A stretch of DNA of 64,000 nt from a virus. Taxonomy: Duplodnaviria > Caudoviricetes. Of this stretch, positions 50,832 through 56,019 are shown in pieces. Position 1 is the stretch's first letter, and each line of letters begins with the position of its first letter. The stretch spans positions 1 through 64,000 of IMG/VR virus record IMGVR_UViG_3300033463_000079, one strand, 5' to 3'. The notes beneath the pieces were generated by a model. It was not told the DNA's origin and did no database searches. It was given only the letters and a program-made list of their open reading frames with translations. The position numbers and the translations under genes were made by a program.

Positions 50832-52694
50832 ATGGATTTAGAAAAGACGACAGTGATCGGCAGAGACGAGATTCTTGAGGCCGATGAGATCCTGAAGAAG
50901 TACAAGTCAGGCAAGGAGAGCATCGATGCCAAGGTCACAGAGAACCAGGAGTGGTGGCGGCAGCGACACTGGGAACAGATCAAGAAGGGCGACACGACGG
51001 TAAGGGATGAGTCGAGGCCTGTATCCGCCTGGATGTTCAACAGTATCATCAACAAGCATGCGGACATCATGGACAACTATCCGAAGCCGAACATCCTTCC
51101 GAGATCAGAAGAGGACGCAGAGTATGCGGAGAGACTGACGGACATCATTCCGGTCACGCTGACGAGATGCCACTACAAACAGGTATACTCGAAGGCCGGT
51201 TACGACATCCAGATCGAAGGCGGACGTGCGACCGGTGTGTTCTGGGATCAGACTCTGGACAATGGCATGGGCGGCAACGTGGTCAAGAACTGCGACGTGC
51301 ATAACCTATTCTGGGAGCCAGGTGTCGAGGATATCCAGGACTCTGCGAACTTCTTCAACGTGACGCTGATGGACGTTGACGACATGAAGGTCATGTATCC
51401 GGAACATGCGGAAGAGCTGAAGCCGCTCGATGCAGGAACCGTCGCCAAGTACGTACATGACGACAACATTGATACGACAAATAGCTGCGAGGTAGTGGAC
51501 TGGTATTACAAGAAGGTAGTCATGGTGGAAGGCATCACGGACGAGATGGGCAGAAGTCTGTACACGTCTCCGAAGACCGTGCTGCATTACGTCAAATACT
51601 GCGGCGACGTGGTTCTATATGCATCAGAGGACGATCCGGCATGTGCGGAAGGTTACTACCATCACGGACTGTATCCATTCGTCATCAAGCCGCTGTTCCC
51701 GGTCAAGGATACTCCTTGGGGATTCGGTTACGTTGACGTCATGAAGAGTCCGCAGAAGTACATCGACGTGGTAGACGAAGCCATCCTGAAGAATGCCAGG
51801 ATGAAGACGACTCCGAGATACTTCGTGAAGAAGTCGGCGGAGATAGATCTCAACACGTTTGCGGACTGGTCAAAGCTCATCATCCCGGTATCCGGATCGG
51901 ATCTGGACGACGTGCTGAAACCGGTGGACGTGGACTCGATACCACATGCGGTAATGGCATATCAGCAGAACAAGATCGACGAACTGAAGGAGACGTCCGG
52001 AAACAGAGATTTCTCACAGGGATCCACAGCAGCAGGAGTCACGGCAGCATCCGCAATCGCATCACTGCAGGAAGCCGGATCCAAGTTAGCACGAGATCTG
52101 AATGCGATCCTCTATGATGCACATCAGGAAGAAGTCTACATGATGGTCGAGAACCTTCGTCAGTTTGCTGACAGGCCGCAGTCGTATCGTGTGGACGACG
52201 GTGCAGGCGGATTCAGATTCGTGGAGCTTGACACATCTCTGATCCAGGATTCAGTGTTCGACGTTGAGATCGTGGCGGAGAAGCAGAGTCCGTTCTCAAG
52301 AGCAGCGCAGAACGAGACTGCAAAGGAGATGTACTCGATGGGTATGTTTGCTCCGGAGAATGCGCTCGCTACACTGGCATGCCTGGACATGATGCAGTTT
52401 GAAGGGATTGAGGAAGTGAAGCAGAACGTAATGCAGAATTCAGAGTTCCTTCAGCAGTTCCAACAGATGCAGGCGCTCATACTTGAAGCGGATGCGTATC
52501 TTCCTGGACTTGCTATGCAGGCAGGACTCATTGATCCGCAGCAGGTACAGATGGCAGCGCAGGAAGAACAGGAACGTGGGATGCTTGGCAAGAACGGCAT
52601 GACAGCAAATGAGAGAGCTGCCAGGACGGACACTGACACGACACTTATGGCAAAGGCGAGAGTGAAGGCCGCAAATCAGGCCTCGATAGGATAA
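50832..52694 (+). CDS. portal protein
   Basis: 620 aa after terL; NSIINKHADIMDNYP, LKETSGNRDFSQG...TAASAIASLQEAG. Confidence 0.9.
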   Translation: MDLEKTTVIGRDEILEADEILKKYKSGKESIDAKVTENQEWWRQRHWEQIKKGDTTVRDESRPVSAWMFNSIINKHADIMDNYPKPNILPRSEEDAEYAERLTDIIPVTLTRCHYKQVYSKAGYDIQIEGGRATGVFWDQTLDNGMGGNVVKNCDVHNLFWEPGVEDIQDSANFFNVTLMDVDDMKVMYPEHAEELKPLDAGTVAKYVHDDNIDTTNSCEVVDWYYKKVVMVEGITDEMGRSLYTSPKTVLHYVKYCGDVVLYASEDDPACAEGYYHHGLYPFVIKPLFPVKDTPWGFGYVDVMKSPQKYIDVVDEAILKNARMKTTPRYFVKKSAEIDLNTFADWSKLIIPVSGSDLDDVLKPVDVDSIPHAVMAYQQNKIDELKETSGNRDFSQGSTAAGVTAASAIASLQEAGSKLARDLNAILYDAHQEEVYMMVENLRQFADRPQSYRVDDGAGGFRFVELDTSLIQDSVFDVEIVAEKQSPFSRAAQNETAKEMYSMGMFAPENALATLACLDMMQFEGIEEVKQNVMQNSEFLQQFQQMQALILEADAYLPGLAMQAGLIDPQQVQMAAQEEQERGMLGKNGMTANERAARTDTDTTLMAKARVKAANQASIG

Positions 52695-52978
52695 TGACAA
52701 AGATAATCATCAGCGCCGGAGACGACGGTGGATCCTTCTTCTTCGACTGCGAGAACCATTCCGGAGATCACGACGTCTGCACGATAGCATCGACGCTGTG
52801 CAATGTAGTGGTACAGAGATGCATGGACATGGGGTTCGAGATCGACACATACGAACCTGGACACGTGCGGATCTGCGGAGACAAATGCGACGAAGGAACG
52901 AACGTCGTTCTGCGTACAGTTCTCAAGGTATTCGAGGAGATGGAGCGTCAGAATCCGGACAACGTGAAAGTTTATTAA
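52694..52978 (+). CDS. prp: Prp-like cysteine protease (ribosomal-protein L27 / capsid processing)
   Basis: NHSGDHDVCTIAS retains the His and Cys of the GH...D.VC motif; slot between portal and scaffold. Confidence 0.7.
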   Translation: MTKIIISAGDDGGSFFFDCENHSGDHDVCTIASTLCNVVVQRCMDMGFEIDTYEPGHVRICGDKCDEGTNVVLRTVLKVFEEMERQNPDNVKVY

Positions 52979-53069: not shown

Positions 53070-53996
53070 ATGAATAATTTAAGAATGCGTTTCGATCTGT
53101 TCGACGATGGCGGAGACGGAATCGGAACGGCAGCCAGTGAATTCGCATCATCCTTGGGGATCGATGTGAGTGATCTTACTTCGCAGCCAGACGATACTGC
53201 ACCACAGGTGGTATATGGCAAGGACGGAGAAGATAGTCCAGTCGGCTCGGACGAACCGGAACAGGAACCGGCATCAAATCCTGAAGAAGAGTTCGCTAAA
53301 CTGATAGGCAAAGGCGGAAAGTACGAAGAGGCATATGCCAACCGTGTGCAGGAGACGATCCAGAATCGTTTCAAGAATGCGACAGACTGGGAAGGTGTGA
53401 CGAGTGCATACGAGCAGGCGACAGCTCCATTGTACATGAAGTACGGCCTGGAAGTAGGCGACGTGGAAGGACTGCAGAAGGCAATCGAGACGGACGACGA
53501 TCTGTACGCAAGACTTGCCGAGCAGGACGGTGTAACGACAGACAAATACAGAGAGAACGTCAAGCTGCGGCTCGATGCACAACGTGGCAGAGAAATGCAG
53601 GAAGAGTTCGCAAAAGAGAGACAGAGACGTCAGATGTACGAGAAGTGGGATGCTGAAGCGGAAGAGCTGAAAGAGGCATTCCCGAACTTTGATCTCATGG
53701 CAGAACTACAGAATCCGCAGTTCGCAGCGCTCCTGGATACCGGCAACTTCGGTGTGAAGGATGCGTTCATGGCATGTCACGTCAACGACATTCTCGAAGG
53801 TAACCAGGAGTACACCAGGAAGCAGACAAGGGAAGACGTAGCACAGAAGCTCGCATCGAATGCCAGAAGGCCGGTGGAGAATGCGATGTCGCACAATCCT
53901 GCGGTCGTAAGGAAAGCAGATCCATCCAAACTAACCGATGAAGACATGGACAAGATCTTCGAGATCGTCCGGAACGGCGGCACGGTTTCGTTCTAA
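53070..53996 (+). CDS. scaffolding protein
   Basis: MRFDLFD N-terminus, acidic coiled coil, FPNFDLMAEL, RPVENA. Confidence 0.85.
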   Translation: MNNLRMRFDLFDDGGDGIGTAASEFASSLGIDVSDLTSQPDDTAPQVVYGKDGEDSPVGSDEPEQEPASNPEEEFAKLIGKGGKYEEAYANRVQETIQNRFKNATDWEGVTSAYEQATAPLYMKYGLEVGDVEGLQKAIETDDDLYARLAEQDGVTTDKYRENVKLRLDAQRGREMQEEFAKERQRRQMYEKWDAEAEELKEAFPNFDLMAELQNPQFAALLDTGNFGVKDAFMACHVNDILEGNQEYTRKQTREDVAQKLASNARRPVENAMSHNPAVVRKADPSKLTDEDMDKIFEIVRNGGTVSF

Positions 53997-54031: not shown

Positions 54032-55099
54032 ATGAATGATTTCATCATGAATTTCCATCTGTTTGACGACGATGGCAGAGGCACAAGTCCTCTCAATGTA
54101 AACTGGACAGGTCAGACAGGCGCAGGCCAGGATCTGTCTCCGGAAATGAAGACGTTCTATGACAGAGCGCTTCTGAAATGTGCAGAACCAAACCTGATCC
54201 ATGATCAGTTTGGACAGAAGAGGCCAATCCCAAAGGGAAGCGGCAAGACGATTGAGTTCCGTAAGTTCTCATCACTGCCGAAGGCTCTCACTCCACTGAC
54301 TGAAGGTGTAACTCCGATCGGTCAGAAATACAGCGTAACAGCCATCACTGCCACTGTACAGCAGTATGGTGCTTACATCGCAGTATCCGACATGCTGCAG
54401 CTCACTGCATTCGATAACAACATGGCAGAGATCACAAGAATCCTTGGATCCCAGGCCGGCAGAACTTCCGACACTATCACGAGAGAAGTCCTGGCAGCAG
54501 GAACCAATGTATTCTACATCGGCACGAGTGCAGACGAACCATCAGACATCGGAGCTAACGACGTACTGACTGTGGACGCTATCAAGAAGGCCGTCACTTT
54601 CCTGAAGAGAAACAATGCGACTCCGATCCAGGGCGGCGACTTCGTTGCAATCGTACATCCTGATACCGTATACGATCTGTGGAACGATCAGAAGTGGGAA
54701 GAAGCATCCAAGTATGCCGGATCCACACAGATCTTCAACGGCGAGGTAGGCAGACTGTACGGATGCAGATTTGTTGAAACCACTGAAGCCAAGATCTGGC
54801 CTGCCAATGATGCACACGGCAACACTGTTGACGACTACGGCACACTGGTACTGGCGGCAGACGCATTCGGTGTAACATCCATCAACAACGGCGGAATCGA
54901 GACCATCACGAAGCAGCTTGGCAGTGGCGGTACAGCAGATCCGCTCAACCAGAGAGCTACCATCGGATGGAAACTGAACAAGGTAGCAAAGATCCTTGCC
55001 AATGAGTTCATGGTAAGAATCGAGCACACGACCAAGTTCGCAAGTCCGATCGAAGAGGAAGGCGGATCATCCGGCGGATCCTCAAGCTCAAGCTCATAG
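54032..55099 (+). CDS. major capsid protein (N4-gp56 family) with C-terminal GGSSGGSSSSSS tail
   Basis: EMKTFYDRALL...HDQFGQKRPIPKGSGKTIEFRKF...DPLNQRATIGWK. Confidence 0.92.
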   Translation: MNDFIMNFHLFDDDGRGTSPLNVNWTGQTGAGQDLSPEMKTFYDRALLKCAEPNLIHDQFGQKRPIPKGSGKTIEFRKFSSLPKALTPLTEGVTPIGQKYSVTAITATVQQYGAYIAVSDMLQLTAFDNNMAEITRILGSQAGRTSDTITREVLAAGTNVFYIGTSADEPSDIGANDVLTVDAIKKAVTFLKRNNATPIQGGDFVAIVHPDTVYDLWNDQKWEEASKYAGSTQIFNGEVGRLYGCRFVETTEAKIWPANDAHGNTVDDYGTLVLAADAFGVTSINNGGIETITKQLGSGGTADPLNQRATIGWKLNKVAKILANEFMVRIEHTTKFASPIEEEGGSSGGSSSSSS

Positions 55100-55104
55100 T
55101 TCAT

Positions 55105-55704
55105 ATGAAAATACTGATTGCAGTTCCAACTTTTGAAAACATCCAACCGGAAGTGTTCAAAGCAATTTATGACCAGGACAAGTGTGGTCATGATGTGGAC
55201 TTTGATTTCATGAAGGGGTACGACGTCGCATGGGCGAGGAGCAAGATTGCGAAGAAAGCGGTGGAGTGCGGATACGACTACGTTATGATGGTCGATTCCG
55301 ACACAGTGATACCGGCAGACACGTTGACGAACTTCCTCGATCCAGAGGCCGACATCGTGCTTGGATGTTGTCCGAGGAAGAACAGCAAGACCAGAATGTC
55401 CGCACTGTGTACACTGAAGGACAATCCTACAGGCACAGGCTATCACGTCAGTTTGAGCTATGATGCGCTGCAAGGCGAGGAGCGGATCAAACTGGTGGTA
55501 GGCGGATTCGCATGTGCATTGATCGACACGGACGTGTTCCGGAACATGAAGTATCCGTATTTCAGGTACGTGCAGTACGGAAACGGCTCGATACTTTCAG
55601 AGGACTTCTACTTCTGTGAGCAGGCAGGACTGGCAGGATACGATGTGTGGGCGGATCCGAGAGTCAAGTGCGGACATCTGGCACGGTATTATCAGTATGA
55701 GTAA
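55105..55704 (+). CDS. glycosyltransferase (GT-A fold)
   Basis: ILIAVP, DYVMMVDSD (DxD), GFACALID, SEDFYFC, VKCGH. Confidence 0.85.
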   Translation: MKILIAVPTFENIQPEVFKAIYDQDKCGHDVDFDFMKGYDVAWARSKIAKKAVECGYDYVMMVDSDTVIPADTLTNFLDPEADIVLGCCPRKNSKTRMSALCTLKDNPTGTGYHVSLSYDALQGEERIKLVVGGFACALIDTDVFRNMKYPYFRYVQYGNGSILSEDFYFCEQAGLAGYDVWADPRVKCGHLARYYQYE

Positions 55705-55710
55705 AGGAGA

Positions 55711-55962
55711 ATGAACATGGCAACAAAAAAGAAGGCTGCGAAGAAGCCACAAAAGAAGACAGTGACGGTGTACATTCCGTTCGTAGAAGGCGAGGAAGAC
55801 GAGCTGACGATCGGGATCAACGGAGTAATGTACAAAGTGAAACGAGGCGAGGAAGTAGAAGTTCCGAGAGCGGTGGCAGTCGTCATCCGGAATTCAAACC
55901 TTCAGGCCAAGGTCGCAAAGGAATACTGTGAATCCGTCAGAAACGTGGCTATTGCAGAGTAA
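55711..55962 (+). CDS. small head-associated protein
   Basis: IGINGVMYKVKRGEEVEVP motif, common after N4-gp56-type capsid genes. Confidence 0.7.
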   Translation: MNMATKKKAAKKPQKKTVTVYIPFVEGEEDELTIGINGVMYKVKRGEEVEVPRAVAVVIRNSNLQAKVAKEYCESVRNVAIAE

Positions 55963-56019
55963 CAAAGAATGCGGAAGGTGGTGGACACACTGTCTTCCGC
56001 AGTTTTTAAGAGGAATGAA

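Follow-up and report, generated by a model that had tools for sequence, protein, structure and literature searches.

Within a 64,000-nucleotide (nt) stretch of viral DNA, here called the window, which is part of the 79,490-nt IMG/VR virus record IMGVR_UViG_3300033463_000079, a major capsid gene whose product ends in a serine- and glycine-rich tail is followed directly by the gene of a small glycosyltransferase (GT). We conclude that this capsid tail is probably O-glycosylated by the adjacent GT, and comparisons across related loci support the interpretation of the gene pair as a virion O-glycosylation module of a "tag plus transferase" kind. The elements of the module are as follows.

54032..55099, + strand: major capsid gene, 355 amino acids (aa), matching PHROG 1357 and the Pfam families Phage_capsid_4 and Phage_capsid_3
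55049..55096, + strand: C-terminal tail of the capsid, predicted disordered, PIEEE-GGSSGGSSSSSS, residues 340-355, the last 12 of which include 8 Ser
55100..55104: 5-nt spacer in the sequence from the capsid stop to the GT start codon
55105..55704, + strand: GT gene, 199 aa, matching PHROG 1574, a family without assigned function
55294-55302: DxD motif of the GT, D64-S65-D66, following the strand at residues 59-63
55597-55605: S165-E166-D167 motif of the GT
55669-55677: C189-G190-H191 motif of the GT

The capsid open reading frame (ORF) matched PHROG 1357 with an E value of 3.8e-83 and Phage_capsid_4 with an E value of 1e-11, and it scored 46 bits against the HK97-fold profile PF25209, where the cut-off is 27. 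Its AlphaFold model was HK97-like, with a spine helix at residues 124-155 and a P-domain sheet, at a predicted local distance difference test (pLDDT) score of 75.7. By capsid, the closest isolated phages were Bacillus Page-like and Paenibacillus podophages, at 36-39% identity. The protein ends ...EEEGGSSGGSSSSSS (in a longer excerpt, ...HTTKFASPIEEEGGSSGGSSSSSS), and residues 340-355, which lie beyond the last strand (327-333), had pLDDT values below 50; the model thus predicts a disordered tail. At the level of sequence, GGSSGGSSSSSS places Ser/Thr at the extreme C-terminus, as in acceptors of the type known from phage Che8. The preliminary description of this DNA had located a Ser-rich tail at 55061-55096, and both the coordinates and the sequence proved exact: these positions hold the twelve Gly and Ser codons GGC GGA TCA TCC GGC GGA TCC TCA AGC TCA AGC TCA. 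Its view that the tail is not a simple slippage repeat was also essentially right, since the codons are mixed and Tandem Repeats Finder reported only (CTCAAG) x 2.7, in the final 16 nt. The capsid was the sole tailed protein among the window's 58 + strand genes (1/58). Together with the count of 0/442 genes in 80 related loci (see below), this argues that the tail is not a chance feature.

We compared the capsid with its 120 best homologues in a large protein collection and with the 80 closest IMG/VR loci (50-75% identity). In the first set, a tail was confined to the protein of the window itself and to P0122 (92% identity), and the other 118 of 120 stopped some 13 residues sooner, for the most part at a conserved ...AN; P0122 has GGGSGGSGGSSGSSS in place of the window's tail. 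All 80 IMG/VR relatives ended near query residue 340, again mostly at ...AN; every one of them lacked a tail, and no GT homologue was encoded within 4 kb of any. The tail is therefore, as first described, an extension beyond the length of the capsid core. The ENA contigs that encode P0122 and its cluster-mate P0243 measure 4113 and 4302 nt, and those of the GT homologue P0002 (84% identity) and its cluster-mate P0255 measure 4302 and 4113 nt; by these matching contig sizes, the P0122 capsid appears to share its contigs with P0002. The co-occurrence of tails and adjacent GT genes among relatives had been put forward as a test of the original proposal. Independent assortment was not seen, and the window's capsid family was tailed only in the company of a GT.

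The GT was modeled with AlphaFold from an alignment of 28 homologues (58-89% identity), in which the DSD, SED, and CGH motifs were all invariant. The model showed a single Rossmann-like alpha/beta/alpha GT-A fold with a pLDDT of 91 and a predicted template-modeling (pTM) score of 0.89. Foldseek searches of the PDB gave 339 matches at E <= 1e-3, and the top matches listed were mostly GT-A enzymes; they included COLGALT1, STIV A197, LH3, Mimivirus R699, Mnn9, and TarP, with E values from 5e-9 to 1e-5. Among viral models in BFVD, the top matches were GT-A domains of larger phage proteins, with template-modeling (TM) scores of 0.86-0.88. The family comprised 523 homologues of 193-200 aa, the closest of which (P0001-P0004) share 79-89% identity with the window GT and some of which carry precomputed PF00535, PF13641, or PF03452 matches, and its ESM Atlas clusters were 82-100% viral. 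By predicted fold and invariant motifs, the 199-aa protein is a small, soluble, phage-specific minimal GT-A glycosyltransferase. Thus, the earlier GT-A assignment holds, though below Pfam thresholds, and the start of the gene 5 bp after the capsid stop and its DSD and SED motifs were confirmed.

Two of the BFVD matches, A0A6J5M7M7 (788 aa) and A0A6J5T3W3 (1119 aa), are large multi-domain phage proteins whose GT-A domains share 31-33% identity with the GT, and one of the two is annotated as an FkbM methyltransferase fusion.

We next examined the pairing from the side of the enzyme. Alignment-based scans of IMG/VR, GTDB genomes, and metagenomes yielded 222 loci with GT homologues, of which 195 were non-redundant; a single-sequence scan of IMG/VR had returned only one distant locus. 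The GTDB matches were mainly in metagenome-assembled genomes from ruminant and horse gut, from Clostridia-type bacteria and Methanobrevibacter. Tails were called by a fixed criterion for C-terminal tails of Gly, Ser, and Thr (G/S/T). Because this criterion overlooked tags like GAGGATGATGA, proteins with two or more tandem G-x-[ST] units were counted as tailed under a second one. The control loci, drawn from largely the same metagenome series as the GT loci, kept the same counts under both criteria: tailed genes numbered 0/442 across the 80 loci of the window's capsid family that lack the GT, and 4/589 across 52 loci of an HK97 family that likewise lack it. Of the 72 non-archaeal GT loci with 2.5 kb or more of flank on each side, 48 encoded one or more tailed proteins, as against none of the 80 control loci of the window's capsid family (Fisher 8e-22).

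The gene directly 5' of the GT (gap 0-20 nt, same strand) spans many unrelated clusters. It was capsid-type in 67 of the 195 non-redundant loci, and its product was tailed in 42 of 131 non-archaeal loci, with tails including SGGSSSSSSAS, PGGQTGQTG, (GAT)n, (GET)n, and (GQS)n. When 75 non-redundant tailed proteins were scanned against PHROG, about 69 were major capsid or major tail-tube proteins: about 46 were major head proteins (PHROG 10, 909, 544, 422, 29, 212, 2006, 267, and 3270) and about 23, from siphophage loci with GT homologues, were major tail (tube) proteins (PHROG 117/476, 885, 88, 2645, and 2634). Representatives matched the Pfam families Phage_capsid, Phage_cap_E, and Phage_TTP_17. 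The carriers of the tags are thus the two abundant proteins that form the virion surface. In the HK97 family that most often lies 5' of the GT, 7 of 66 loci had both GT and tail, 7 had the GT only, 1 had a tail only, and 51 had neither (Fisher 3e-5). As judged from these loci, the module is far more widespread than the preliminary description had supposed.

These counts bear on whether the window's arrangement is a chance juxtaposition, in which a moron GT happened to land 3' of the capsid gene and a low-complexity stretch expanded neutrally to give the tail. The position after a capsid gene is a common insertion point, and tails evolve fast, as the difference between the P0122 tail and that of the window illustrates. 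However, at least 14 families of structural proteins show the pairing, whereas its background is near zero, and the invariant GT motifs imply selection for activity. We regard chance as a very unlikely explanation.

Strongly acidic Thr/Glu tags (ETEETEETEETEQTE, GETETGETETGETA, and ATTEGATTEGD, at L165:2544-3488, L232:273-596, and L281:1-570) are unlike the Gly-rich tags, and a Gly-based rule would miss them. Two tail-tube proteins, in loci L309 and L331, end in Ser/Gly (RAASSGSGGS and GSSGGSSGGSSGGSGGEG, respectively).

In a GT tree of 189 rows, the window's GT falls in a clade of 11 members, and all 10 of those with genomic context have a tailed upstream protein; six of these tails are Ser-type, on PHROG 10 capsids, and three are GET-type, on proteins of 97-108 aa. 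Another clade, of 56 members, has (G-A-T)-type tails in 52 of 53 labeled rows. A middle clade has mixed tails, and a Methanobrevibacter clade of 35 has none. Across different structural-protein families, then, tail chemistry in the compared sequences follows GT clade, which is what an enzyme-acceptor relationship would predict. Tail/GT co-occurrence, enrichment over controls, and clade tracking together support the capsid glycosylation originally proposed.

The archaeal GT homologues (39-45% identity; Methanobrevibacter loci L177-L219 and Methanobacteriales virus BK063679.1, 7390-7962) form a separate clade. They are always preceded by a coiled-coil-like protein of 85-98 aa (...YEYRCEREDKINLDELE...), and no G/S/T tails occur nearby.

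A related podophage locus, L224 (904-3429), shows that the tag is portable. Its PHROG 1357-type capsid (414 aa) is untagged, and its GT, 65% identical to that of the window, is preceded directly by a 97-aa protein that carries a GET tail and ends ...ESGESGETGTTGETGETESGTS. Here the tag has moved to another protein and adjacency to the GT has been kept. This locus also lends some weight to the idea that the GT glycosylates another virion or assembly protein (the 83-aa or 908-aa protein encoded further 3', or fibres) and that the capsid tail has a different role: in L224 and L232 the tailed protein beside the GT is small (97-108 aa) and not a capsid, and GT-positive phages without tails exist. 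In the window, however, the capsid alone among the 58 + strand genes is tailed, and the 83-aa protein ends ...RNVAIAE, without a tag. Another acceptor in place of the capsid therefore seems distinctly improbable.

Several observations weigh against glycosylation of the capsid tail by the GT. All of the support is comparative. The GT did not reach the gathering score of Pfam GT families (Nucleotid_trans, 19.1 bits against a cut-off of 22; Glyco_trans_2_3, 17.5 bits against 27), and a profile search of PDB sequences detected no relative. Within the window's capsid family, tail and GT co-occurrence amounts to one evolutionary event. An independent-pairs test on the tree of the HK97 family gave only three pairs, in which the tail shifted the same way in one or two and the opposite way in none; the capsid tree holds only about four gains or losses of the GT, which left the test underpowered, and the independence of the pairing rests instead on the number of unrelated tagged protein families. 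On the enzyme side, 24 of the 72 non-archaeal full-flank GT loci had no tail by the criterion used, and a tail was found in only 1 of 21 loci of the Methanobrevibacter clade; the GT family must therefore have other acceptors, or else minimal or unrecognized tags. Finally, no GT of the window's family lay in the several kb flanking the tailed tail-tube genes of L309 and L331, which may be served by another GT family or by a distant GT gene.

That a third of GT loci lack tails is also what one might expect if the substrate of the GT were a polymer of the host envelope (teichoic acid, capsule, or S-layer glycan) and its modification served to exclude superinfecting phages or to aid release; the tail would in that case be an unrelated flexible spacer or anti-aggregation bristle. 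Consistent with this, the GT's Foldseek neighbours include the wall-teichoic-acid enzymes TarP and RmlT, and in many loci the GT adjoins Glyphos_transf (TagB/F-like) or GT8 genes. On the other hand, the GT, soluble and 199 aa long, carries neither a membrane nor a polymer-binding extension, and its gene lies inside the capsid operon and not in a lysogenic-conversion module. Envelope modification would also leave unexplained why capsid and tail-tube tails occur almost only with the GT and why tail type tracks GT clade. We consider it unlikely, and O-glycosylation of the capsid tail remains our preferred reading.

In many loci another enzyme gene stands between the gene of a tailed capsid and that of the GT homologue. 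In L115:2554-3501, L155, L167, and L169 it encodes a TagB/F-like CDP-glycerol glycerophosphotransferase (Glyphos_transf; PF04464, E 3e-28), and in L120:2818-3501, L171, L175, and L178 a GT8 enzyme (PF01501, E 1e-14). These arrangements hint at a multi-step, possibly teichoic-acid-like, decoration of the virion.

To our knowledge, experimental support for phage virion glycosylation exists only in actinobacteriophages, and Freeman and colleagues are said to have noted, in the abstract of their 2023 study, little evidence of glycosylation outside actinophages. In the literature searched, no description of such a module turned up for phages of Firmicutes, of the gut, or of the rumen. When ten other phages, some with Firmicutes hosts, were surveyed by glycoprotein staining, the result was negative (PMC12894461). 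The best point of comparison is the set of mycobacteriophages Che8, Corndog, and Myrna, in which, according to two articles (PMC12619734, PMC12363180) that summarize Freeman et al. 2023 (Cell Host Microbe 31:1216), glycans are found at the C-termini of capsid and tail-tube subunits; the GTs of this system include Che8 gp108-110 and Corndog gp38. Like the Che8 type of system, the window's module combines a phage-encoded GT with acceptors that would lie at the C-termini of high-copy surface proteins, and across the wider family these are likewise capsid and tail-tube proteins. The Che8 capsid gp6 ends ...NKTGS and its tail tube gp11 ends ...YSDGS, Gly/Ser ends that resemble the tags of the window's family.

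In contrast to the single small GT gene directly after the capsid gene in the window, Che8 has three GT genes (gp108-110) about 50 kb from its capsid gene, at the far end of the genome. The tags of the window's family are much longer and are repetitive in G/S/T, and the hosts differ, being Actinobacteria for the Che8 type and probably gut/rumen Firmicutes-type bacteria here. The window phage is also a probable podovirus, which would have no tail tube; no tail-tube gene was found in the examined part of the window, and the nearest isolated relatives are podophages. Homology of the window GT to the Che8 enzymes compared with it was rejected (BLASTP E values of 28 for gp110 and 0.08 for gp109). 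A tblastn search of a phage collection gave 105 hits, none of them to an actinophage or mycobacteriophage; they comprised one Methanobacteriales virus and many weak cyanophage matches. Sequence comparison thus indicates a module that would work like the Che8 system, yet is not a member of it.

Structural comparisons point to enzymes of other kinds. STIV A197 (PDB 2c0n) is of similar size (191 aa, within about 190-200 aa), is likewise a bare GT-A core with a DxD motif, and matched across its whole length (Foldseek E 7e-9, TM 0.65-0.68). It differs in sharing only 16% identity, in belonging to an archaeal virus, and in having an unknown substrate and no known tie to tagged capsids. The best structural matches (E 5e-9 to 1e-6) were human COLGALT1/GLT25D1 (9evk), the GT domain of LH3 (6fxm), and Mimivirus R699. 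The collagen GTs are GT-A enzymes that O-glycosylate protein on Gly-X-Y repeats, and many tags of the window's family are (G-A-T)n or (G-E-T)n. However, identity is only 10-14%, the collagen acceptor is hydroxylysine and not Ser/Thr, and the window tail has no Gly-X-Y periodicity; the resemblance may reflect general GT-A similarity. A collagen-like structural role for the (G-A-T)n tails is unlikely, as they have only 2-7 repeats and the window tail is non-periodic.

The module lies in a podophage-type morphogenesis region that occupies the window from about 48.8 kb onward. Its other features are as follows.

48833 (start): small terminase gene
49408 (start): large terminase gene
50832 (start): portal gene
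52694-52978: Prp-like peptidase gene
53070..53996, + strand: 308-aa gene 5' of the capsid gene, matching PHROG 13908 (E 2.6e-54), a family without assigned function
55711..55962, + strand: gene of an 83-aa lysine-rich protein, matching PHROG 15239 (E 3.4e-9), function unknown
55970..56011, + strand: terminator-like hairpin, a 14-bp stem with 7 GC pairs, then a T-run
3' of the 83-aa gene: a 150-aa gene, then the gene of a 908-aa virion protein

From its position, the 308-aa protein is probably the scaffolding protein. The 83-aa gene has a strong AAGGAG ribosome-binding site and is the final gene ahead of the terminator. No terminator-like site was found between the capsid and GT genes, the first strong hairpin with a T-run being that at 55970-56011, and the scaffold, capsid, GT, and 83-aa genes look like one late unit that begins with the gene at 53070..53996 and is closed by this hairpin. 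No Shine-Dalgarno sequence was evident in the 5-nt spacer, and translational coupling of capsid and GT is therefore likely. Prp-like proteases cut N-terminal propeptides, and C-terminal processing of the capsid by the protease at 52694-52978 was accordingly set aside.

This placement also bears on the idea that the GT glycosylates phage DNA bases as an anti-restriction measure. Phage GTs are classically DNA-modifying in the literature, but the operon that holds this gene is a late structural one rather than a DNA-metabolism module, the neighbouring genes include no hydroxymethylase or anything similar, and the association with tails would be left unexplained. Of the alternatives to tail glycosylation that we weighed, DNA modification is the least credible, and we give it almost no weight.

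The ORF after the hairpin matches PHROG 12105 only from its residue 18, so its real start is probably an ATG downstream of the hairpin. The GC content of the window is 0.41-0.48 before about 50 kb and 0.49-0.53 beyond; this step is compatible with a possibly chimeric assembly. Judging from its relatives, the host of the window phage would be a Firmicutes-type bacterium of the gut or rumen.

Two observations concern the capsid family at large. Its members nearly all end in a conserved A-N or N-N (P0126-P0240), which the tails of the window and P0122 replace. In several relatives, the capsid gene (L028:4938-5151) is split at ...ADPL|NQR... by a group I intron (in L028, Rfam RF00028, 75.5 bits, E 3e-19). 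Capsid matches are likewise split in L024, L027, L029, and L030, and P0131 and P0223 look like truncated first exons.

We propose the following sequence of events. Given their adjacency and the lack of a terminator between them, the capsid and GT genes would be co-transcribed in one late unit and coupled in translation. The DxD motif of the GT would form the metal and nucleotide-sugar site, with a host nucleotide sugar presumably serving as donor, and the enzyme would attach sugar to serines of the disordered 12-15-residue C-terminal tail of the capsid. The C-terminus of HK97-fold capsids is exposed on the outside in known cases, such as T7 10B display and the BIG2 domain of phi29, and by analogy that of the window capsid would be exposed as well. 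Since exposure is seen in other HK97-fold capsids, including that of Che8 with its glycans, the hundreds of tails on each head would bear a glycan coat. In the gut or rumen, such a coat might shield the particle from antibodies, proteases, or decoy binding, or alter its adhesion, although this is speculative. The same GT family seems to have been paired repeatedly with portable G/S/T tails on unrelated capsid, small capsid-associated, and tail-tube proteins.

More broadly, we lean slightly towards the view that PHROG 1574 is a GT family that works with portable disordered tags, added independently to at least nine capsid and at least five tail-tube families of gut and rumen phages. On this view, tag chemistry co-evolves with GT clade, TagB/F-like or GT8 enzymes extend the modification in some phages, and sugar-coated, possibly teichoic-acid-like, virions are common in the gut viromes of animals and no mere curiosity of actinophages. 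Candidate glycosylated virions can be sought in viromes by a simple rule that combines a PHROG 1574 gene with a capsid or tail-tube protein whose C-terminus is a G/S/T tail. With a tail of about 15 residues and an enzyme of 199 aa, the pair of tag and enzyme is small, and it lies in one operon, which makes it directly testable by co-expression, and it could become a compact tool for site-specific O-glycosylation of proteins. Should the tags prove to be true acceptors, glycan coats would be present on a large proportion of the phages of ruminants and the gut, and such coats could alter antibody recognition, protease resistance, adhesion to mucus or fibre, and particle stability.

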